Below, in pieces: positions 44,642-55,710 of a stretch of 64,000 nt of DNA. Location: contig JAXGZN010000001.1 in assembly GCA_040776945.1 (NCBI GenBank), forward strand, positions 288,001 to 352,000, written 5' to 3'. The position numbers and the translations under genes are program-made. Each line of letters begins with the position of its first letter. The first letter of the stretch is position 1. The stretch comes from Methanomassiliicoccaceae archaeon. Lineage in GTDB: Archaea > Thermoplasmatota > Thermoplasmata > Methanomassiliicoccales > Methanomassiliicoccaceae. The notes under the pieces are model-generated. The model had not been told where the DNA came from, searched no databases, and worked only from the letters and a program-made list of their open reading frames with translations.

Positions 44642-46072
44642 TCATGCTCCCTTCTTGAGGACCTTTCGGAAAATCTCTATATCCTCCTGGTCGACCGCTT
44701 TCAATGCGAAGAGCAGTAAAAGGTAGACCGCCGCCCCTGTGATTATGGAGAGCAACAGATTGTCCCAGGGAAGCATGATGAGAACGAAGGCCATTCCCAG
44801 ACCGGCCAGGGTGGGCCGGAGGATGATATCGGAGACCTTCAGATGCACCACCCTCCTGCTCATGAAATAATGGCTGATGACGTTGGTTATCAATGTGGCC
44901 ACCGTGAACGCCAAGGCTGCCCCCAGCGCTCCCCATGCAGGGATGGCGAGGAAACATATCAGAAGGTTGGCGGCGGCCCCCGCCACTGAAGATATTGTGC
45001 TCAGATGCATTAGGTTGGCGGCGGCCAGGAGGCTCCCTTGCCCAGTGCCGAAATAGGAAATGGCCAGGACCGGCAGCAAGATCTGCAGGACCACGGCGGA
45101 CTCGGGCCGGTCGGGGAACAACAGGCCGATGATCTGGTGAGCCAGGATCGTTCCTCCCAAGGTCATGGGGAGTCCCAGGCTGTACATGTACTTCATGATC
45201 TTTTGCTGCGCCAGTTTGGTCATCTCCTTCGATGAGCCGAAGAGCCGGGCTATGACCGGGAGAAGGGCCGTGCGGAACACCGTGGGGACCGCGATCAGGG
45301 CGGCCACTAGATTGAAGGCGACAACGAACTGGTTATTGGCCGCCTGGCCGGCGCTAAGGCCGTCCAGTCCGCCGATTATCGAGAGAAGGAGGAACCCGTT
45401 TATCGAGTATAGTGTGCTCACCAGGGCGACGTTGATGGCGAACGGCGTGGCCCCCTTCAGGTCCGCCTTGATGTCCCTGAACCTGATCTCCTTCGAAGGT
45501 TTGACTATCAGGCGGGAGCACACCGTATATGAGAGGATCGCGTACAGCAGGCTCCCTGTGAGCACCACCATGACCACTGTCGCCAGCCCATACCCCATTA
45601 TCACTAGGGCGATGGCGGTGGAGACGGTGAACATCCTCTCCACCAAGTAGGTCATGAAGACATAGTGCATCTTCTCGAAGGCGGTGAACATTGAGGTGAA
45701 CGTCTGAGCTATCCATCCCAGAAGATTGGATAGCGCTATGACCAGGTACGCGAAGGCCACATCGGACGGGAGGTCAGATATGAGAACGAAGCCTAGCGTC
45801 AATATCACGGCAACGGTGCCAAGCGTCCCCCTGATCGTTAGGATGGAGCTCAGCTTTCTACCGGCGATGTCCCGGTTCTGAGCCACGTCGATCACCATCT
45901 TGGTCCCCAAGCCCAGGTCGGCTATCAGGAACAGGACGGTGGCCACTGAGAACGCGGAGGTGTAGGTGGGGTAGTCATCGACCAGCTTGACGCTCAGAAC
46001 CATCGCTAGGACCAGGGTGCTCAACTGGCTTATGAACTGGACCATTCCCATGGCCAGGGAGTTCTTTGCCAC
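44642..46072 (-). CDS. Wzx/MOP-family polysaccharide flippase
   Basis: Multi-pass hydrophobic protein with AKNS, ADLGL, LLPVIAR, WGALGAALA. Confidence 0.85.
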   Translation of the reverse strand: MAKNSLAMGMVQFISQLSTLVLAMVLSVKLVDDYPTYTSAFSVATVLFLIADLGLGTKMVIDVAQNRDIAGRKLSSILTIRGTLGTVAVILTLGFVLISDLPSDVAFAYLVIALSNLLGWIAQTFTSMFTAFEKMHYVFMTYLVERMFTVSTAIALVIMGYGLATVVMVVLTGSLLYAILSYTVCSRLIVKPSKEIRFRDIKADLKGATPFAINVALVSTLYSINGFLLLSIIGGLDGLSAGQAANNQFVVAFNLVAALIAVPTVFRTALLPVIARLFGSSKEMTKLAQQKIMKYMYSLGLPMTLGGTILAHQIIGLLFPDRPESAVVLQILLPVLAISYFGTGQGSLLAAANLMHLSTISSVAGAAANLLICFLAIPAWGALGAALAFTVATLITNVISHYFMSRRVVHLKVSDIILRPTLAGLGMAFVLIMLPWDNLLLSIITGAAVYLLLLFALKAVDQEDIEIFRKVLKKGA

Positions 46073-46123: not shown

Positions 46124-47455
46124 TCAGAGATCCTCCCGCTGATGCTTCTTGGCATCGCTCCTCTTGAAGATGGCCCGGAACTTATCCTTTGCGGGAAAAA
46201 CGGCCGTTCTAGACCTGTCCAAGGCATCCTCATCGGTCTTCATTCTCAGGAGGTCGTAGGCCTTTTTCGCCAGCTCCCCTCCGTACCTATACCTCCAGAG
46301 CATAGGGAAAGGGTCGGTCAGTGCATAGTAGGCGTGTACGTCGACCTTGGCAATGGACTGGAGCCATTGGAACGTATTGATCTCTCCTCTCCGATAAAGT
46401 CTCCAGAACGAGTTGATATCGTTGAGGCTGTCCCACCAGACCATTCCGTCGGGGTAGTCGCCAACCTCCGGTAATGGATGGCCGATTAGGTCGCAGTATT
46501 GGAACAGGACCAAGGGAATGCCGGCCGCGGCCTGAAGGGCATTGGTCTGCCCGGTCCTGGCGTTCATCTCGACCATTTTAAAGGCCCCGTCCCGCTGGTC
46601 CCGCTTGAACTCCACATATCCTATTCCGCGGTACCCCATGCCTTTCATGAATCGAATGGCTAGCTCCCTCACCTCAGGCTGATGAGCGCTCTTCACGAGG
46701 GAGCCGACGCCGAAGCTGGGAGGATATTGTCTTAGCTTATGCCAACAAAAGTCCGGCGAAACATAGCCGTTCCGGCCGAAATATGCCCCTACGCTGTAGA
46801 GGTCCTTCCCCGTAGGGGTCATTATCGTCTGCACCATCACCTCATGTCCGGACGCGAAGATCGCCTTCATCTTATTCCGAAGCTCCTCGGCGTCCTTGAC
46901 CGCGAACCCCTTATTGTCAAAGGTTGCACACCATTTGTGAGAGCGCAGCGGCTTGATGAAAGCAGGGAACCGCACAGTGTAAGCGACCATCTCAAGATCG
47001 TCCGGCCCGGAAGGGAAGCACGTCTCTGGGACCGGGATTCCCAAACGGACCGCTTCCCTGTACTGGAGGCGTTTGTCGACCATCGCCTCGCGGACACCTT
47101 CGGGAGGTACGTTGAAATGGAAATGCTTGGAAAGCTCCCGCTCATGATGGGCTAGAAGTTGAACAGCGTCGTCCGACGCGGGGAAGATCACTCCCTTGCG
47201 GTCCTGTCCCTCCCCTGCCTGGATGAGCGCCTCTACCGCAGCCTTGGGGTCCTCCCTTATGTCCTCGATCAGAAGACGGTCGACGTACCTAGAGGCGAAC
47301 CCCGGCGCCTTGGGGTGGCTGTCGATGCCGATAACCGGTACCCCGCTTCGTCCTAACGTGCGGGCGACGGCCAGGCCATTGGCGCCCATGTTGATCACGT
47401 AGGCGGTAGGCATCATATCCTTTGGAATGGTCTGGCCTCCATGGCCGGCTACCAC
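46124..47455 (-). CDS. ATP-grasp carboxylate-amine ligase (D-aspartate ligase-like), copy 1
   Basis: GANGLAVARTLGRSG, DKRLQY, FIKP, KLRQYPPSFG, VEFKRD, EMNAR. Confidence 0.85.
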   Translation of the reverse strand: MVAGHGGQTIPKDMMPTAYVINMGANGLAVARTLGRSGVPVIGIDSHPKAPGFASRYVDRLLIEDIREDPKAAVEALIQAGEGQDRKGVIFPASDDAVQLLAHHERELSKHFHFNVPPEGVREAMVDKRLQYREAVRLGIPVPETCFPSGPDDLEMVAYTVRFPAFIKPLRSHKWCATFDNKGFAVKDAEELRNKMKAIFASGHEVMVQTIMTPTGKDLYSVGAYFGRNGYVSPDFCWHKLRQYPPSFGVGSLVKSAHQPEVRELAIRFMKGMGYRGIGYVEFKRDQRDGAFKMVEMNARTGQTNALQAAAGIPLVLFQYCDLIGHPLPEVGDYPDGMVWWDSLNDINSFWRLYRRGEINTFQWLQSIAKVDVHAYYALTDPFPMLWRYRYGGELAKKAYDLLRMKTDEDALDRSRTAVFPAKDKFRAIFKRSDAKKHQREDL

Positions 47456-47590: not shown

Positions 47591-48910
47591 TCATGCCGGC
47601 CTGTTGCCCTTATCCGCGTCTGCCGAGTAAGGGGCAAGCCGCGCCTTGTTGAGCGTTACGGACCCTTGCCGGGCGCCCACATCATCTTCGTCGACCTTCA
47701 TCCTTAACAGGTCTGCCATGAGCCTTGCCAACTTGATGCCGAAACCATACCGATAGAGCACAGGGAGGCGGTCATCGGGCGCATAATGTGAGTAAATATC
47801 AGAGCCGAGCCATGAGCGAAGCCATTGTCCGCATGTCATCTCGCCACGACGGCGGAGCCGATAGAACGAGTCGATATCCATCATGCCGTCCCACCACCTG
47901 ACCCCATCGCGGAAGTCCTTCAGCTCCGGCTTGGGCCGGCCGGTCAGGTCCAAGTATTGCAAGTACACCAAGGGGATCCCTGCCCCGTCGGAAAGCTCGT
48001 GCGCCATCCAGGTACGGGCGTTCAGTTCGATCAGCTTCCACTCCCCGTCCCTCTCGTCCCTCTTGAAGCCCACCGATGCGATCCCTTTGTACCCAAGTCC
48101 GTTCATGAACTTCATTCCCAGTTCGGCGACCTCGGGTTGATGGCAGCTCATGGCCAACGACGCGACCCCGAAGTTCGGAGGGTACTGTCGCACCTTTTGC
48201 CAGGTGATCACAGGGGAGACGTACCCGTCACGGCCCATGTACGCTCCTACGTTGAAAAGGTCCTTGCCCGGTGGCCATATGATGTCCTGCACCATGACCT
48301 CCTGGTCTGTCGCCAACACCTGTCTCATCCTCTCCCTCAGTTCAGCGGCGTCCTTGACCACGAACCCCTTTACCCTAAAGATCGGGGACCAAAGATGAGA
48401 GTACAGCGGCTTGATGAACGCGGGGAAGCGCAGCCGGTCCATCCCTTCCTCCACCTCCCTCATCGAGCGAGGGTAGAAGGTCTCCGTCATCGGTATGCCC
48501 AGCCTTATAGCCTCCTCATACTGAAGGCGCTTGTTTATCATCGCCTCCACCACCTTCTCTGGCGGCGCGATTAGTTCGAAGCTTCCTGCCAACCTGCCTC
48601 GGTTCCTTGAGATGAACAGGACGGCGGGGTCCGAGGCAGCGAAGAGGACAGGTCGCTCGTCCAGTCTTTCACCTTCCTCCATGAGCATATCGAGCAATCT
48701 TTCCGGTTCCTTGAGTATGTCCGGGCCGATCATGGGAGCGACGAACCTGGAGCGCATTCCAGGCAGGTCCGTCCGATGGTCCACTCCCACGACCGTGATG
48801 CCTCTCCTGCCAAGTGTCCTGGCGATCCCTAGGCCATTTATGCCCATGTTGAGCACGTACGCTCTTGGTAACGGTCCATCTTGCACCCTATCGCTATCCT
48901 GTCTGAACAT
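47591..48910 (-). CDS. ATP-grasp carboxylate-amine ligase (D-aspartate ligase-like), copy 2
   Basis: GINGLGIARTLGRRG, NKRLQY, FIKP, KVRQYPPNFG, VGFKRD, ELNAR. Confidence 0.85.
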   Translation of the reverse strand: MFRQDSDRVQDGPLPRAYVLNMGINGLGIARTLGRRGITVVGVDHRTDLPGMRSRFVAPMIGPDILKEPERLLDMLMEEGERLDERPVLFAASDPAVLFISRNRGRLAGSFELIAPPEKVVEAMINKRLQYEEAIRLGIPMTETFYPRSMREVEEGMDRLRFPAFIKPLYSHLWSPIFRVKGFVVKDAAELRERMRQVLATDQEVMVQDIIWPPGKDLFNVGAYMGRDGYVSPVITWQKVRQYPPNFGVASLAMSCHQPEVAELGMKFMNGLGYKGIASVGFKRDERDGEWKLIELNARTWMAHELSDGAGIPLVYLQYLDLTGRPKPELKDFRDGVRWWDGMMDIDSFYRLRRRGEMTCGQWLRSWLGSDIYSHYAPDDRLPVLYRYGFGIKLARLMADLLRMKVDEDDVGARQGSVTLNKARLAPYSADADKGNRPA

Positions 48911-49033
48911 CGGAGCCTCCCCTTAATGTACTTGTCCAAGGTAGCTTTGGCAGGCCCAATACGCCTGCCTCGGGCCGGTCGAGAGCCGGCGGGCCGTCAA
49001 AAGGATTATCCTTGCCCATCCCCTAGGCCCCAT

Positions 49034-49801
49034 GTGAGCATCGGACTTGCACCGGAGGGACAACTGGCACGTCAGAGGGAGTGGCTGGAGGAATCTTGGC
49101 TGTGGTTGCTCCGGACGCTGGTTCTGGACGAAGCACATGAGCGTTCTGGGAGACCAACGGCACTGGACGTGGGGTGCGGTCCAGGCCTGGTGATGGAGCT
49201 GCTTTCACCGTTCCTCGATGTCCAAGGGGTCGATGTCGATCCCGAGGCGGTCAGAGCGAGCGCCGCCCGTGGGACCATGGCCTCCGTGGCGAGAGCGGAG
49301 GAATTGCCTTTCGAGGACGACGCGTTCGATATCGTATATTGCTCATACCTGCTTCTATGGGTCGATGATCCCGAGGTCGTCGTCAGGGAAATGAAAAGAG
49401 TGTCCCGGAACTGGGTGATCTGCCTCGCCGAGCCGGACCATTCAGGTCGGATCTCCTATCCAGAAGGGCTGTCCGTTCTTGACGATCTGTTCGTAGCCTC
49501 TATTCGGGAGAAGGGCGCCGACCCGGCCATGGGGCGCAGGCTTAGACATATATTCGCCAAATGCGGCCTCGATCCCATTGCAGGGGTCCACGCCAACATG
49601 TGGATCGGCCCCACGCCTAAGGAGGAGACGGACGCCGAGTGGGTCTCCTTGACCTCCGGGACCGATCGCGAGAGCTTGGCCGAGCTGCAAGGGGTTTGGG
49701 AGAGGGCCGCGGCCGATGGCTCTTTGGTCCAATTCAACCCTGTGTTCTACGCCTTGGCCAGAAAGGGCCCGGTAGATCAGGGGCGGCTGATGCATGAGTA
49801 A
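49034..49801 (+). CDS. Class I SAM-dependent methyltransferase
   Basis: LDVGCGPG, GVDVD, AEELPFEDDAFDIV, EMKRV. Start uncertain (track start 48881). Confidence 0.85.
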   Translation: MSIGLAPEGQLARQREWLEESWLWLLRTLVLDEAHERSGRPTALDVGCGPGLVMELLSPFLDVQGVDVDPEAVRASAARGTMASVARAEELPFEDDAFDIVYCSYLLLWVDDPEVVVREMKRVSRNWVICLAEPDHSGRISYPEGLSVLDDLFVASIREKGADPAMGRRLRHIFAKCGLDPIAGVHANMWIGPTPKEETDAEWVSLTSGTDRESLAELQGVWERAAADGSLVQFNPVFYALARKGPVDQGRLMHE

Positions 49802-51117
49802 TCGCCGTTCTCCCTGGCCAGAGGACAGCCTCCTCCGCAGGTGTCCACCAGGAAACAACCAGCGCACTCGTCATCCAGATACCCTCTGTTGCGTATCTCA
49901 TTGCACAGCTCATTGTTCCATATGTACTCCCACTGGTCCCTGAGGATGTTGCCCAGCGGGCGGTAGTAGCTCTGGCAGGGCAAGACCGTTCCGTCCGGCT
50001 CCACTGCCATGTTCTGCGAGCATGCGGTGCATTGCTTAATGCCCAATCCCAGGCTCACCGGGTTCATCTGACAGTATGGGGTCGGGGTGAACCATATCAT
50101 CCGCGCTCCCGCGGCCTCCACCATCTCCTTCATCCTTATGAGGGTCTCCTCCAGATCACTGCAGTCGACGCCTTCGGTCCTCACTCCTTTGCCTGAGCGG
50201 ATGACGCTGTTGAACGAGATGTTCTTGACCCCGAGATCGATGAGGAACCTTGTCGTCCCCTCCATATCATCTATGTTGGATGCCATGATGGTGGTGTTGG
50301 TGCTGACGTACAGGTTCTCTCCCAGTGCGACCTTGAGCCCCTCTATGGTCTCCTTCCACGCCCCCGCCTTGCCGACCAGGCGATCGTGGACCTCCTGGCG
50401 ATGCGAAAGGACCGTTATCTGCACATGGTCCAGCCCCTTGGCGACCAGTTCGGCGAGATAGCCTGGGACCCGAAGGTACCGGCCGTTGGTCACGATCCCG
50501 GTGACCTGGCCATAGCTCTCCGAAAGAGCGATCAGATCACCCAGGTATGGCACCAGTGTCGGCTCCCCGCCGGTGAAGACGATGTGGGGCACGCCCAGGT
50601 TCCAGGTCTTGGCGATGACCTTGCGCCATTGCTTGGCCGTTAGCTCATTGAGCGTGCTCGGCTCGTTGTAGCAATGCAGACAGGCGTTTTGGCAATTGTA
50701 GGTGAGAGCAAGGTCCATGCGATATGGGGCATGGAAGCCGTCGGCCCCCTTGGTCGGCGATTCGGTCCCAATGACGTTTACCACGTCCTTGCTTCCTTGC
50801 AAATATTGCTCTAGCTGCCTCTCGATAAGTGCATAGTGGCTGGTGGCGGTGGCCCGCTCCAGTTTATTGTATCTTCTGGACATATAGATGAACATCTCAT
50901 CCTCAGAGCGCCCCTCCAGCAGGCATCGTGCATAGTCAAGCGCGGTTCCGTTTAGCACGATCAGGTGGGAGGCGTCGATGATCAGCATGCCCTTGTGGTC
51001 GGCATCCACCCTCAAATGGAAGCGATGCCCCTTCAGCTTTCCCCTCCCGTCATACTTCCATACTCCAGGAGACAGGCCTTTTCCGGTAAGCTCGGCCCAT
51101 TTGCGGCCCAGTGACAT
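49777..51117 (-). CDS. Radical SAM/SPASM enzyme with N-terminal PqqD/RRE-like domain
   Basis: CQNACLHC, FTGGEP, TNG. SPASM Cys set CTAC..DGTVLPC..CAGCFLVDTCGGGCP. N-terminal LNGTA..LEGRSEDE..RRY wHTH. ATG 51117 overlaps the upstream TGA. Confidence 0.9.
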   Translation of the reverse strand: MSLGRKWAELTGKGLSPGVWKYDGRGKLKGHRFHLRVDADHKGMLIIDASHLIVLNGTALDYARCLLEGRSEDEMFIYMSRRYNKLERATATSHYALIERQLEQYLQGSKDVVNVIGTESPTKGADGFHAPYRMDLALTYNCQNACLHCYNEPSTLNELTAKQWRKVIAKTWNLGVPHIVFTGGEPTLVPYLGDLIALSESYGQVTGIVTNGRYLRVPGYLAELVAKGLDHVQITVLSHRQEVHDRLVGKAGAWKETIEGLKVALGENLYVSTNTTIMASNIDDMEGTTRFLIDLGVKNISFNSVIRSGKGVRTEGVDCSDLEETLIRMKEMVEAAGARMIWFTPTPYCQMNPVSLGLGIKQCTACSQNMAVEPDGTVLPCQSYYRPLGNILRDQWEYIWNNELCNEIRNRGYLDDECAGCFLVDTCGGGCPLARENGDYSCISRP

Positions 51118-52802
51118 CAGCGCCCACCTCCGGCACAGGCACAGGCGCAAGCGCAGGCACAGGCGCAGCTATGGCCGCCCCCGCCACCTCCGAACCCTCC
51201 GCTGGACGCAGAGGTGGAGGTAGCGGGGATAGGATTGGTGAAAGGCGTAACCTGCCTCGCAAGCCCTTTGATGTCATTGACCAGGTTGCTGCTGGTGGCC
51301 TTTACCTTGCTGACATAGTCCTGGGCGATGTTGCCGCCGCCCTGCGTGGGAAAGCCGGGGACCTGGGACCCTGAGGTTGTCCTGGGACCGCTGGCGGTGC
51401 CTGAACCAGGGGCACTAGTATGGCCGATGAGGACAGGAAGCGGGAACACCGTCCTGCGCATCCGACCCTCATAATCATTGTCGATCATCATCCAGTCGTT
51501 CCTCTCGTTCAGGACGGATGCGATCTCCTCGGGCGTCTTGGAATCGATCACCTGCCTCCAAGCAGTTTCAACGATAGTTCGGTAATAGTTCTGCGTGGCG
51601 TTGAAGTCGAAGCCCTCCACCTTCTTGGAGGTCGCCTTGATAAGGTCCACAAGGCAGATCCTCAGCATATTGCGGTCCATGGTTCCGTCCGGCCTGATCG
51701 CCCCTAGGTACGCGTTCTCATATGCGTGCTCCCCGGTCTCCGATAGCTTCTGCAGGCGCATCGGCAGCGATTCCGAGAGCACTTTGACCTTACCTTTCCT
51801 GATGAGACCAAAAAGGACCATGGTGGCGACATCCTCCAGAGGACGTTCCATGATTATCGCCGCCTCCACCGCGGTAAGGTCCCTCCTAGGGCCAGCACCT
51901 ACCACGCTCAGCTTTGGATCGAAGTAGTCCTCTCGCCGCTTGGCCGCGCTGCGGACCGCGGATATCATGCCCCCAATGATTATCGCGATGAAGGTCAGTG
52001 GGAACAGCAGGCATGTAAGGGCGATCATGTCGTCGATTATGTTGCCTCCGCCGCCGAGGTTGGGATCGGTGGTCGGATCATAATGGACCTGTACATAACT
52101 GGCGGGGAAACCCACGCCGACGTCAAAGGCCCCCCTGGCCTGGTCCTTCGGGTTCACCCCGGTGGCCTCCCATGCAACGACTCCTCGTCCTAGGGAGCTG
52201 TCGAAGTAAGCGGCGTTGAACGGCTGGTTCTCCAACCAGGTGGTTTCGTTGAGGTCGGTCATGCCGGCCGGCAGGATGATGGAGGCGTTCAGCAGACCGG
52301 TGTTCCCGACCTGAAGTTCGGTATCGAACCAGGTAGGTGTGAAGGCGACCCCTGCCCGGTCGGCCACCTGTGGGTCGGAGTAGACCATATGTGGATTATT
52401 GATGTGGAGGTAGAGAGCGAACGAGCCTCCGCCCTGCACCTCTGATACGGTCGCAGGATCGAGCTCCACCGCGATCCCGGGATGCACATATGATGAGTCG
52501 TGTATCTGCCGCGGACTGCGTTCATGGCCGTTCACAACAATGCGCGCGGACGCTGTCGATAGGTCATAAAGGCTGTTGGGCATGCCAACATCCACACCGT
52601 CCAGGTAGCCGATGTTGGTGAAAACGAACTTATAATCTATGTCCACGCTGCCGTCCTGCATGACAGTTACATTGACCCTTTCCTCTGATACAGAGAAGGA
52701 ATAATCCTGAGCCGATGCGATACTGACCGGACCGGTCGGCAGAAGAGACATCATCGCCAGGGCGACGATGGCCAGCATCAACAGCGCTCGCCCCTTTACC
52801 AT
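51117..52802 (-). CDS. Secreted/membrane protein (DUF2207-like) with C-terminal GGGGHS(CA)6GGGR tail
   Basis: Signal peptide, extracellular beta domain (VTVMQDGSVDIDY), one internal TM helix, cytoplasmic domain, Gly/Ser linker then CACACACACACAGGGR. Start refined to ATG 52802. Confidence 0.85.
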   Translation of the reverse strand: MVKGRALLMLAIVALAMMSLLPTGPVSIASAQDYSFSVSEERVNVTVMQDGSVDIDYKFVFTNIGYLDGVDVGMPNSLYDLSTASARIVVNGHERSPRQIHDSSYVHPGIAVELDPATVSEVQGGGSFALYLHINNPHMVYSDPQVADRAGVAFTPTWFDTELQVGNTGLLNASIILPAGMTDLNETTWLENQPFNAAYFDSSLGRGVVAWEATGVNPKDQARGAFDVGVGFPASYVQVHYDPTTDPNLGGGGNIIDDMIALTCLLFPLTFIAIIIGGMISAVRSAAKRREDYFDPKLSVVGAGPRRDLTAVEAAIIMERPLEDVATMVLFGLIRKGKVKVLSESLPMRLQKLSETGEHAYENAYLGAIRPDGTMDRNMLRICLVDLIKATSKKVEGFDFNATQNYYRTIVETAWRQVIDSKTPEEIASVLNERNDWMMIDNDYEGRMRRTVFPLPVLIGHTSAPGSGTASGPRTTSGSQVPGFPTQGGGNIAQDYVSKVKATSSNLVNDIKGLARQVTPFTNPIPATSTSASSGGFGGGGGGHSCACACACACACAGGGR

Positions 52803-53164
52803 CTGGGAGCCTCCTCCAGCGCATAGACGGTGCCACAGTAGGGGCATTTGACCATCACGCCCCCTTGGACCACGCGGAGGTCCTTGTCCTCAAGCGGGGC
52901 CCCGCAGGAGCGGCAGGTGAGCTGTTTCTGATCGAGCTTTCCCGAACCGCTCATCTGAACGTTGAAGGTCTGATTGATCAGTTTAGGCTTGGCCGCCTCG
53001 ATCTTCTCCACTCGGTAGATATAGAACAATAGTCCGGCGGCAACGATCGTCATGACCGCCCCGGCAGCAATGTTCTCGATTCCATCGGCGATGATAAATA
53101 CGCCGCCCAGTAAGATCAGGAATATCGCTAGGACAGTGATCAGGCCGCTCATCAGCTTGCTCAT
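52796..53164 (-). CDS. Two-TM protein with C-terminal zinc ribbon
   Basis: Two hydrophobic helices then CRSCGAPL...KCPYCGT. Overlaps the start of the downstream gene. Confidence 0.8.
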   Translation of the reverse strand: MSKLMSGLITVLAIFLILLGGVFIIADGIENIAAGAVMTIVAAGLLFYIYRVEKIEAAKPKLINQTFNVQMSGSGKLDQKQLTCRSCGAPLEDKDLRVVQGGVMVKCPYCGTVYALEEAPRW

Positions 53165-53634
53165 ATGTTCCCTTGTAAAGGCAATCGTCCGACCATCTCT
53201 TAAAGCTAGTTACCAGTATGCCGGCCATATGCCGATGGGCTTGGTACGAGGGACCCGAACGCCACAGACGGACTTACTGTCGTTGGACGGGCCTGGTTCT
53301 GGAGGCGACCCCAGGCGTGAAAGGGCCGTTCCATTTTAGGCCGTTGGAATGGAGGACGAACGGGCGTTCCCGCTCGACCCATAAGGTCACCTTTCTCGAA
53401 CCAGGACCTCGCCCGTGGTCACCTTGGACATGCGGACCATAGTGCCGGACCATTTATCACAAAGGGTCCCAATCATGCTCTGTGGCATTGCGTTGGAGAG
53501 TAATTATCAAATTTCAAAATAAATCTGGCTCCTCGTAATTAATCATTATCTCAAGTGATAATCGTATGCAAAACCTCTTGAAATATCCCGTTTTGGTTGG
53601 AGCACAGCTCTGTCGAAACAGAGAGGGATGCCTA

Positions 53635-55710
53635 TTGGAAAGAAAAATAAGCAAACTAGCGGCAGCTATGGCGGTAATGGCCCTTTTATTACCGGGATTG
53701 CTGCTGGTGTCCAACATTCCGACCTCTTCGGCCGCTGCTCCCGACATACCTGAGATCGGGAGAGTGACCGTATCTGGCACTGACATCCTTGTGGACGGCA
53801 AGAGGCCGAACCACCAGTTCTACGGGGTGGTGGACACAACCGCCCTGGCGTTCGCGATCGAGGCGTACATCTATGGCAACCGCAATGTGGCCGGATGGAC
53901 CTCGGTGTTCAATGCTCCTGACACGGGGAAGCATGTCCCGGTGACCCCGAACGACACTCCAGACGCGTTCTGGAACCAGTACTTCGCCCAGATGAAGCAC
54001 TATGGGGTCAACCTCGTGCGCATCGGCGCTGGGGACAGCTGGGGGACCGAGCACCAGTACAAGGCCTGGAAGAACTACCAGGACGAGTACTTTGACCTGC
54101 TTCACAGCATGAGCTATTACGCTCAGGCCAACGGGGTATGGTTGTGCTTCGTTTTGGCCGGCGCTCAGGAATATCCGACCTACCACTACTATGGAACGGG
54201 CAGTGTGTTCGATCCGTCCTCTTCGGCCTTCGCCAACTACATCGAGTACTCAAGATCGACGATGGTGGAACTGGAGAACGAGAACGCGATCGCTATGTAC
54301 GACATGTTCAACGAGCCTGACCACAACAACGTGAACACATACTACTGGCACGGGAACAAGGTCCAGTACAACCAATGGTCCAAGGCGGTGGATGCGTCGA
54401 CCGCTGGCGTCAGCGGTCACCCTCGCACCTTGGGTGTGGCTGGTTTCGGCAATCTGTTCGGGATGACCAAGCGTGATTTCGATCTCGCCACCGGTGACGC
54501 TGGCTTCGAGATCCTCCACCGGCACTATTACGGCTCGAACGCCGACCCGACAAACTTTGCGCTGCCCGAGGAGTGGGCCAAGGACGCCGGCAAACCACTG
54601 CTCTGGGGCGAGCTGGCCAACAACGGCCCATACCCGCTGATCAGGTACGACTATGGTGAAAAGGCGATCTGGAAGGCAGGGGGCCAGGCCATCACCTCGA
54701 TGGTGCTGACCGGCACCCCCGGCTACCCGTATTACGGAGGCGTCTCTGGCGCCCAGGTGGCGCCCAGACCATCCGATTGGAAGGGGGACCATTCCAGTTC
54801 GGCCGCCGCCTTGGCCCTGGACTTCACCTCCACGCCCTCCAAGACGGACAAGGTGGGCTCCCGCTACGAATATAAGGTGACCGGCAACAAGAAAGCGACC
54901 ATAGATGTGGACACCAATGCCTCTTTCCTCCTATTCGACAAGAGGGATGAGGTCATTCGAGGTATACCCGGAACGGCCGGAACATACGCCGTCAGGGTGA
55001 CCATGGAGGCGGACGGGCAGAAGGTCCAGCAGGAGTATGAGTTGGTGATCGAAGCTGATCCTGAGAAGGGGACCGCTGAGATAGTGGCCATAGAGCTCGG
55101 GGCCAACAGATACAGCTTCTCCTACCGAGCCGATCTTGGCGATGGTCCTGTGTCGTCTTCCCATTGGGACTTCGGTGATGGCACGACTTCGTCCGAGCCT
55201 GCACCGGTGCACGCCTTCCCCGAGGGAGAGCATCTCGTTACCCTCACCTTGACCGGTGAGAACGGCACCATGCTCAACACAACATATGGGGTGGATGACA
55301 GCAAAGAGAGCGCCGCTCCTGGCGCTGGGTCCGGCCAGTCCATCGCCGGCGCCGTTGGATGGGGCACCACCAGCTCGGCCCTAATGGTCGTTGGCCTGGT
55401 GTGTGCTTCGGTCATCGGAATAGCGGGCTACCTCAGTGTGAGCCGCGGAGGAGGCCATTCGTACCGCCACCATAAGAGTGTGAGGTTCCCTGATCCCCGC
55501 ACGGCCGTGGGGTTCGGCAAGACCACCCTCATGTTGCTGAAGGAGATGAACTACCCTGATCGGAAGCTGATAAGGGACCTCTGCCTCTATCTCTTGAAAC
55601 AGGTCAGGACCAGAGGCTTCAGCTTGGTGATCTCGGTCAAGGACCAGGCCCTGGATGGTTTCAGGTTGATAATGGATACCGCTGCCAAGCACCTTCGCCC
55701 TCGGAAGTGA
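53635..55710 (+). CDS. Membrane-anchored glycoside hydrolase clan A (GH5-like) with Ig-like and PKD domains
   Basis: Signal peptide, GVNLVRI, YDMFNEP acid/base, HRHYY, KPLLWGE nucleophile, GIPGTAGTYAVRVT Ig-like, WDFGDG PKD, TM helix. TTG 53635 has an RBS. Confidence 0.8.
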   Translation: MERKISKLAAAMAVMALLLPGLLLVSNIPTSSAAAPDIPEIGRVTVSGTDILVDGKRPNHQFYGVVDTTALAFAIEAYIYGNRNVAGWTSVFNAPDTGKHVPVTPNDTPDAFWNQYFAQMKHYGVNLVRIGAGDSWGTEHQYKAWKNYQDEYFDLLHSMSYYAQANGVWLCFVLAGAQEYPTYHYYGTGSVFDPSSSAFANYIEYSRSTMVELENENAIAMYDMFNEPDHNNVNTYYWHGNKVQYNQWSKAVDASTAGVSGHPRTLGVAGFGNLFGMTKRDFDLATGDAGFEILHRHYYGSNADPTNFALPEEWAKDAGKPLLWGELANNGPYPLIRYDYGEKAIWKAGGQAITSMVLTGTPGYPYYGGVSGAQVAPRPSDWKGDHSSSAAALALDFTSTPSKTDKVGSRYEYKVTGNKKATIDVDTNASFLLFDKRDEVIRGIPGTAGTYAVRVTMEADGQKVQQEYELVIEADPEKGTAEIVAIELGANRYSFSYRADLGDGPVSSSHWDFGDGTTSSEPAPVHAFPEGEHLVTLTLTGENGTMLNTTYGVDDSKESAAPGAGSGQSIAGAVGWGTTSSALMVVGLVCASVIGIAGYLSVSRGGGHSYRHHKSVRFPDPRTAVGFGKTTLMLLKEMNYPDRKLIRDLCLYLLKQVRTRGFSLVISVKDQALDGFRLIMDTAAKHLRPRK

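Follow-up and report, generated by a model that had tools for sequence, protein, structure and literature searches.

A window of 64,000 nucleotides from a Methanomassiliicoccaceae archaeon (assembly GCA_040776945.1, contig JAXGZN010000001.1, positions 288,001 to 352,000; coordinates below count from the first letter of this window) encodes a bitopic membrane protein that ends in six Cys-Ala pairs followed by Gly-Gly-Gly-Arg, and directly downstream of it a radical S-adenosylmethionine (SAM) enzyme of the SPASM type. The N-terminus of this enzyme resembles the recognition element (RRE) of systems for peptides made on the ribosome and modified post-translationally (RiPPs). We propose, with a probability of about 45%, that both genes belong with a zinc-ribbon gene and a methyltransferase gene to a four-gene protein-maturation cassette, in which the cytoplasmic tail is altered by the enzyme, thioether crosslinks of Cys being the most likely result. 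That the enzyme would act on the tail is suggested by the coupling of the genes, their co-inheritance, the RRE, the invariance of all positions of the tail and the fact that the unit contains no further gene for a Cys-rich protein or a peptide. RiPP-type radical chemistry has long been regarded as a route to small secreted peptides and, to our knowledge, the crosslinking of a whole Cys-rich protein by a SPASM enzyme was shown only in 2026, for CrpC and its substrate CrpA.

Three genes of the minus strand overlap one another: that of a small zinc-ribbon membrane protein (52796..53164, an open reading frame, or ORF, of 122 residues with weak Pfam zinc-ribbon matches), that of the tail-bearing protein (51117..52802) and that of the enzyme (49777..51117, 446 residues from its ATG). 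An earlier note, made from the letters alone, had described this set as a zinc-ribbon protein with two transmembrane (TM) helices, a membrane protein and a radical SAM/SPASM enzyme, and the ORFs agree with it; so does the TGATG overlap at 51115-51119, where the stop TGA (51119-51117) and the start ATG (51117-51115) have one base in common. Two further parts had been overlooked: a conserved class I SAM-dependent methyltransferase gene on the plus strand (48881..49801 for the longest ORF; Pfam Methyltransf_11, 3.1e-18), which in the window is convergent with the radical SAM gene and overlaps its 3' end, and a Cys-less paralog of the enzyme, found in bacteria. The longest ORF of the tail protein has 576 residues (51117..52847)—the numbering kept below—but translation probably starts at ATG 52802-52800 (MVKGRALL..., 561 residues), because this start and the end of the zinc-ribbon gene (TGG-TAA) overlap and because the closest homologs begin with MV. 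With TGA/ATG and TGG-TAA overlaps at the two junctions, all three minus-strand genes are thus coupled.

The Cys-Ala tail and the membrane protein that carries it

The ORF of the tail protein ends ...GGGGGHSCACACACACACAGGGR, that is in HS(CA)6GGGR (51120..51173, minus strand; residues 559-576). Related loci were collected by a scan with one genome per species, which gave more than 600 pattern matches and 314 confirmed relatives, of which 80 were kept; a search with the single radical SAM protein had found no related locus, and the alignment-based scan did, at least 314 species genomes being matched in one scan. The tail is encoded in all 80 loci, by 77 intact ORFs, two frameshifted ones and one cut at a contig end. 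In the 77 complete ORFs, from archaea as well as bacteria, the last ten residues CACACAGGGR are identical, and they are written in 77 different strings of 30 nucleotides, in which every synonymous codon occurs: two for Cys, four each for Ala and Gly, six for Arg. An identical peptide coming from so many coding strings implies purifying selection on every position of the tail, Ala and Gly included, and its conservation is far beyond chance. The tail is among the most strongly conserved short motifs between the two domains.

In the window itself, the six Cys codons read TGC, TGT, TGC, TGC, TGT and TGT, and the six Ala codons are GCC apart from the third, GCT. The earlier note had taken this mixture as a sign of selection on the protein and not of slippage; the codons are as it reported, and the 77 distinct strings coding one peptide rule out slippage or a low-complexity artefact. 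The window's own genome of 2.17 Mb holds a single (CA)n ORF. The tail offers six to seven Cys at i,i+2 spacing, behind a flexible Gly linker.

A wider search for homologs of the tail protein, over 5.8 billion proteins, gave 124 of them in total; the 120 listed comprise 107 with the GGGR tail, 12 truncated ones and a single one whose end is a variant. When 1.84 billion representatives of clusters at 50% identity were searched exhaustively by profile, 467 clusters had E<=1e-30, and the best 150 representatives comprise 119 with the GGGR tail, 14 with variant CxCxC tails (e.g. ...SCACACACVSCACACAGGGAR) and 17 truncated ones. There is also a sub-family (P0323, P0334, P0338, P0344, P0349-P0352, P0359, P0366, P0369, P0374 and P0376) with three S-C-[AV]-C-[AV]-C-[AV] blocks and an end in GGGAR, SGGAG or similar in place of GGGR. 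A stand-alone short precursor was not found in the search for shorter tail-carrying proteins, in keeping with the lack of such a gene noticed previously: 119 of the 120 short matches listed end in the tail, and the 19 inspected are all C-terminal pieces of the same family of about 550 residues. The loci contain no conserved peptidase or exporter gene.

A few tail and enzyme genes of the collection are broken. Frameshifts split the tail gene in L007 and L052 and the radical SAM gene in L011, as assembly errors or pseudogenes. In L092 (G173:C16, from a genome 99% complete), the otherwise intact tail gene has an in-frame TGA at the codon of the invariant Trp430. We considered selenocysteine and rejected it, because this single TGA replaces an invariant TGG; the change is either nonsense or an error of sequencing.

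The tail protein is composed of a signal/TM helix (15-35), a beta-sandwich ectodomain (51-248), a TM helix (270-308) and a cytoplasmic part made of a winged-helix-like start with a helical bundle (326-466), a disordered linker, two helices at 507-537, the Gly linker and the disordered tail; the AlphaFold2 (AF2) model has a predicted local distance difference test score (pLDDT) of 78.4 overall and above 90 in the domains. As the N-terminus reads as a signal peptide (...ASAQ) and as Lys and Arg follow the TM helix, the tail is predicted to lie in the cytoplasm, within reach of an iron-sulfur enzyme. In an alignment of 27 members (29-59% overall identity), the invariant segments are CACACAGGGR, R-x-L-T-A-x-E-A-A after the second TM helix, and T-N-P before the Gly linker. 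Some bacterial members of about 770-840 residues (P0241-P0243, P0245, P0248) have two tandem copies of the outside beta-sandwich before the TM helix and the tail.

The protein has no sequence match in Pfam, NCBIfam or the PDB. By fold, the best Foldseek matches are with a subunit chain of the human oligosaccharyltransferase (8b6l_O and 6s7o_E, E 1.5e-9 to 9e-9), which we take to be ribophorin I, and the next ones with the N-domains of M1 aminopeptidases. It had been labelled DUF2207-like; Pfam gives no family at E<=10, DUF2207 (PF09972) and DUF2207_C (PF20990) included, whether the query is the window protein or an ortholog from a bacterium, while clusters of both families stand among its ESM-Atlas neighbours with scores of 0.94-0.97, so that DUF2207 is retained as a lead only. 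DUF2207/DUF2207_C (YciQ-like) proteins are built of a signal peptide, an outside domain, a TM helix, an inside domain and a Gly-rich C-terminus. This overall plan is the same, whereas the Cys-Ala tail and the radical SAM partner are specific to the window family.

The enzyme and its association with the tail protein

The window enzyme belongs to the radical SAM proteins (PF04055, 1.9e-19, 70.9 bits for a cut-off of 29.5) and carries a SPASM domain (PF13186, 1.8e-10, 41.4 bits for a cut-off of 21.5). The CX3CX2C motif of the SAM-binding [4Fe-4S] cluster (C142, C146, C149) is invariant in 30 orthologs, as are the SPASM cysteines C363, C381 and C418-x2-C421-x5-C427-x3-C431, C349 being nearly so, which makes seven SPASM Cys in total. 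In the AF2 model (pLDDT 84.9, predicted template modelling score 0.85), the alpha/beta core is preceded by an RRE-like domain at about 18-106, with beta-strands at 18-56 and helices at 57-68, 72-82 and 88-106. The best Foldseek matches in the PDB are SuiB, SkfB, CteB, PqqE, anSME and TigE, the first three of which align across about 400-470 columns (E 7.5e-16 to 1e-12). The profile search of the PDB likewise finds SkfB (3.6e-29), with an alignment that begins at position 25, inside the RRE, and PqqE (4e-25); Y150 behind CX3CX2C and C-Q behind C381 are common to the enzyme and SkfB. Besides, the stand-alone RRE protein TfuB1 (6jx3_B) is matched at 7.8e-5 over profile positions 19-92, and Pfam PqqD (PF05402) matches 21 of the 30 orthologs (best 9.4e-8). 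The likeness of the N-terminus to a PqqD/RRE peptide-binding domain, proposed in the earlier note, is thereby sustained: because fold, PDB profile and PqqD agree, we regard the predicted RRE as holding at the level of the family. More distant PDB relatives are the epimerase EpeE/YydG (1e-4) and anSME (2e-8, SPASM part only).

The association of enzyme and tail was counted in the 72 loci whose flank beyond the tail gene measures 1.4 kb or more. In 64 of them (archaea 11/11, bacteria 53/61), what lies directly downstream is an active radical SAM ortholog, with CX3CX2C, L011 with its frameshift and L014, where the gene overlaps the tail stop, being included. The converse was asked of 201 Thermoplasmatota genomes, with the profiles of both proteins applied to the same sample. 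Radical SAM scores there are bimodal: 20 genomes reach at least 404 bits over the full length, RRE included, and the rest remain at or below 184 bits, over the core only. In each of these 20 genomes a Cys-Ala protein gene adjoins the enzyme gene (17 by profile, one cut at a contig end, two of a variant form); the tail-gene end (GGGCACACACACACAGGGR) of G183 lies at the very end of a contig, beside the enzyme. Neither gene is found in 180 genomes, among them a complete genome of the same family, and in one genome 81% complete (G073) a fragment of the tail gene sits at the end of a contig, with no match to the enzyme. Tail proteins, in short, do not commonly occur without the enzyme, and this joint presence and absence indicates that gain and loss of the enzyme go along with those of a Cys-Ala protein.

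The archaeal loci belong to Methanomassiliicoccales and other Thermoplasmatota. The bacterial ones include many Anaerolineae/Chloroflexota, and also Zixibacteria, Cloacimonadota, Fermentibacteraceae, Edwardsbacteria, Acidobacteriota and a deltaproteobacterium. Most carriers are anaerobes that live in digesters and sediments; cultured ones are Bellilinea caldifistulae, Ornatilinea apprima and a Leptolinea sp.

The zinc-ribbon gene precedes the tail gene in 78 of the 80 loci, L030 having the tail gene without it. Its product has two hydrophobic/TM helices, then a CRSCG...CPYCG ribbon, predicted to be cytoplasmic because positive residues follow TM2, and an invariant E-x-P-K/R-W C-terminus; C84, C87, C107, P108, C110, E118, P120 and W122 are invariant in ten orthologs. 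A variant cassette found in another Thermoplasmatota family (L089 4992-7687, genome G192, and L090, genome G172) is instructive in this respect. There the radical SAM gene comes first and is coupled (ATGA), and the tail protein, of 474 residues with a similar ectodomain, has two TFIIB-type zinc ribbons (2 x PF13453, 1.5e-20) fused into its cytoplasmic part. It keeps the Cys block (SCACVSCACVSSCACACACAGGG...), as an internal SCACVSCACVSSCACACACAGGGAAGCAPK... block with about 15 residues behind it, and no longer has the E-x-P-K-W end. Through this fusion, the zinc ribbon is linked in function to the tail protein.

Where at least 3.6 kb follow the tail gene, the methyltransferase gene is found in 9/9 archaeal and 35/54 bacterial loci; its orientation is convergent in the former and co-directional in the latter. 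Since the orthologs have about 250 residues, its true start is probably some 50 codons inside the longest ORF. The best NCBIfam match, the DVU_1556 family (NF045667), gives 49.6 bits for the window copy and 58.8 for that of L026, under the cut-off of 155. The second-best PDB relative is LahSB (6uak, 5.9e-10), the methyltransferase of a lanthipeptide cluster, which methylates a peptide C-terminus; likeness to these named relatives is confined to the generic Rossmann core.

In bacteria, a paralog of the enzyme of about 390 residues is encoded between the enzyme and the methyltransferase in 38 of the 54 loci with enough flank (for instance, in Anaerolineae, L026 9049-10230, L079 9159-10319 and L080 9161-10321). 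It keeps the RRE-like N-terminus (Pfam PqqD, 6e-5) and a GGEPT motif, and has lost CX3CX2C and all SPASM Cys; from its sequence it looks like a catalytically dead binding subunit.

Nature of the proposed modification and competing explanations

We consider it likely that, as the earlier note had proposed, the tail is the substrate of the enzyme; the purpose that the note suggested for it, metal binding or signalling, is conjectural. If so, thioether formation is somewhat the better supported chemistry, because the nearest characterised relatives form thioethers, CrpC acts on a whole protein and StsB uses a C-x-C-x-C block. The cytoplasmic enzyme would dock by its RRE on the conserved segment before the tail (the ...V-T-x-x-T-N-P-x-P region), the T-N-P-x-P segment, 20-35 residues upstream of the tail, being the candidate docking site. 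5'-Deoxyadenosyl radical chemistry on the tail would then create Cys-S to carbon thioethers onto neighbouring Ala or Gly, of sactionine or ranthionine type—Ala and Gly are the only partners available in CACACAGGGR—and in the SPASM domain, with its seven Cys, an iron site would stay open to the substrate thiolate. The class I methyltransferase might put a further methyl group on the tail, and the small zinc-ribbon protein might be the membrane partner of the tail protein.

The closest precedent is CrpC of Methanococcus voltae, an RRE-radical SAM-SPASM enzyme which, according to the main text of PMC13692751 (2026), installs thioethers on the 28.8-kDa protein CrpA; its seven SPASM Cys are read there as an open site for the substrate thiolate. 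Both enzymes are archaeal and have the same three parts and a seven-Cys SPASM domain; CrpC has three [4Fe-4S] clusters, predicted for the window enzyme too, and its target, like the candidate target in the window, is a Cys-rich C-terminal region of a whole protein. The substrates differ: CrpA is described there as soluble, with ten 17-residue repeats and C-x-x-Q/D motifs, whereas the candidate substrate in the window is a bitopic membrane protein of 561 residues with a short (CA)n-GGGR tail, accompanied by a zinc-ribbon partner and a methyltransferase. The window enzyme also lies outside the CrpC family TIGR04463 (29.3 bits, E 1.8e-7, for a cut-off of 525). The words "membrane", "Cys-Ala", "CACA" and "Methanomassiliicocc" are absent from the main text of PMC13692751; with about 9 Cys in 561 residues, the tail protein would be excluded by the Cys-content filter given in it (at least 5% for proteins above 250 residues).

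For the alternation of Cys, the precedent is StsB, which, according to PMC10288494, crosslinks an alternating C-x-C-x-C block of donors to the alpha-carbons of Gly. StsB is a radical SAM/SPASM enzyme as well, and its NCBIfam family is among the matches of the window enzyme, at 88.2 bits for a cut-off of 625. In the Sts system as presented there, the RRE is a separate protein, StsC, and StsA is a short leader-core peptide with a donor-acceptor loop, whereas in the window the RRE is fused and GGG directly follows the Cys block.

SkfB (6EFN), CteB (5WHY/5WGG) and SuiB (5V1Q) share the three-domain architecture and are the best matches by sequence and fold, but with 14-20% identity and with short secreted peptides as substrates; the score for the SkfB family TIGR04403 is 68.8 bits for a cut-off of 300. 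A short precursor (leader plus Cys-containing core) that is released after modification, as in sactipeptide and ranthipeptide systems, was not found for the window system. Action on Cys of full-size proteins is known from other radical SAM-SPASM enzymes, QhpD and anSME (4K36-39). The latter has no RRE, resembles the window enzyme in the SPASM part only, and acts at a sulfatase motif, C-x-P/A-x-R, that the tail does not contain. A last likeness is with a trio of NCBIfam families, namely the redox protein DVU_1557 (small, with CxxC...CxxC), the class I methyltransferase DVU_1556 and the radical SAM (seleno)protein TrsS; they are matched, far under the cut-offs, by the zinc-ribbon protein (E 0.009), by the methyltransferase of the window (3e-13) and by the Cys-less paralog of bacteria (4e-11), and judged by the family names this trio includes no Cys-Ala tail protein. 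TrsS itself was found in the literature only as a table mention in a review.

Several points weigh against the proposed modification of the tail, which is putative. The Asp, Asn, Glu or Gln acceptors typical of ranthipeptides and of the CrpA C-x-x-Q/D motif are all absent from the tail. C-x-C repeats are a classic metal-thiolate motif, so that the tail could simply bind metal. The window's own enzyme shows no PqqD match at its N-terminus at E<=0.01, nor do 9 of the 30 orthologs. The enzyme reaches none of the named radical SAM/SPASM families of NCBIfam (best PqqE, 105.3 bits for a cut-off of 381; AlbA, 70.6 for 850); we thus rejected its membership in the CrpC family or any other named one, and no function can be transferred by membership. 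As to the gene neighbourhood, the active enzyme is not adjacent to the tail gene in 8 of the 72 loci, five having the Cys-less paralog only and three neither; these three have a full-length ortholog elsewhere in the genome (E 2e-113 to 3e-110), and for two of the five the genome-wide matches are weaker or partial (1e-92 over residues 142-435, and 1.7e-83 with 35% identity). The methyltransferase is missing at the locus in 19 of the 54 bacterial loci. A predicted complex of the enzyme (as an alignment) with residues 500-576 of the tail protein, three [4Fe-4S] clusters and SAM, run without controls, scored 0.22 and 0.02 for a mark of 0.32, and is neutral as to binding.

The metal-thiolate motif leads to an explanation that we hold to be unlikely: the tail would be a metal- or iron-sulfur-binding module of a membrane-anchored metal or redox device, and the enzyme would be inactive on it or would only aid the loading or maturation of a metal centre. 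Six to seven Cys at i,i+2 behind a flexible linker fit such a module, C-x-C clusters bind Cu(I), Zn and Cd in metallothioneins, and the partner protein is itself a zinc ribbon. Metal binding by the modified Cys-rich protein is moreover suspected by the authors of the CrpA study, in the main text of PMC13692751. Metal binding leaves unexplained, on the other hand, the absolute invariance of Ala and GGGR across two domains, and the RRE enzyme and methyltransferase that travel with the tail. It is also compatible with tail modification, which could come first. Rather improbable, in our opinion, is action of the enzyme on the tail by another chemistry, either C-alpha epimerisation of every second residue, giving alternating D and L residues, or an oxidation of Cys, with formylglycine or dehydroalanine as examples of the product; the methyltransferase might in that case methylate a sulfur or form a methyl ester. 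A repeat in which two residues alternate strictly would suit a regular D/L pattern, EpeE/YydG and the Cys-oxidising anSME are among the PDB relatives, and a class I methyltransferase is conserved, with LahSB as its second-best relative in the PDB. But the closest full-length relatives are the crosslinkers SkfB, SuiB and CteB and not EpeE or anSME, the absence of the sulfatase motif from the tail speaks against an anSME-like reaction, and the likeness of the methyltransferase does not go beyond the generic core.

Very improbable, finally, is that the substrate is the E-x-P-K/R-W C-terminus of the zinc-ribbon protein, or a small molecule, the tail protein being a mere membrane partner. The invariant end of the zinc-ribbon protein does contain adjacent Lys and Trp, and SuiB, the best Foldseek match, makes Lys-Trp crosslinks. 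Yet the variant cassette loses this end and keeps the Cys block and the radical SAM enzyme, the enzyme gene is coupled to the tail gene and not to the zinc-ribbon gene, and L030 has a tail gene without a zinc-ribbon gene. 

Coming back to modification of the tail, its fullest form—the tail of a ribophorin-like bitopic protein covalently crosslinked and methylated, possibly metal-bearing, at the cytoplasmic face, as a first case of RRE-guided RiPP-type maturation of an integral membrane protein—is advanced tentatively, as a possibility that falls short of probable.

Genomic surroundings and significance

Other genes around the cassette were considered as parts of it and set aside. Two paralogous ATP-grasp-like genes (46124-47455 and 47591-48910, minus strand; one with a weak CPSase_L_D2 match) lie just beyond the methyltransferase gene, and a polysaccharide-flippase-like gene (44642-46072, minus strand) adjoins them; their synteny is limited to the two closest relatives (L001, L002). 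On the other side, divergent from the cassette, is the gene of a secreted or membrane-anchored PKD-domain protein of 714 residues (53566-55710, plus strand), matched in none of the 80 loci.

The stretch is contained in metatranscriptome libraries of sludge and digesters, in at least 20 runs (14 recorded as RNA; 13 studies). In three runs, contigs at least 99% identical bridge the tail/enzyme junction (X1 50872-52150, X2 51017-53112, X3 50973-53165), and those of two of the three also bridge the zinc-ribbon/tail junction. This is a weak hint of expression, because DNA carry-over is possible and a contig over two genes is no proof of one transcript; a gap in the contig cover of run X7 carries no information.

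Our literature searches found no description of a cassette joining a Cys-Ala tail and a radical SAM enzyme. If the proposal is true, this cassette would carry RiPP-type radical chemistry over to an integral membrane protein, at its cytoplasmic tail, and the machine would be common to Methanomassiliicoccales, other Thermoplasmatota and many phyla of anaerobic bacteria. The system can be tested with a small fusion construct, and cultured carriers exist. A crosslinked and methylated tail, if true, would imply a transmembrane sensing or redox device of a new kind.

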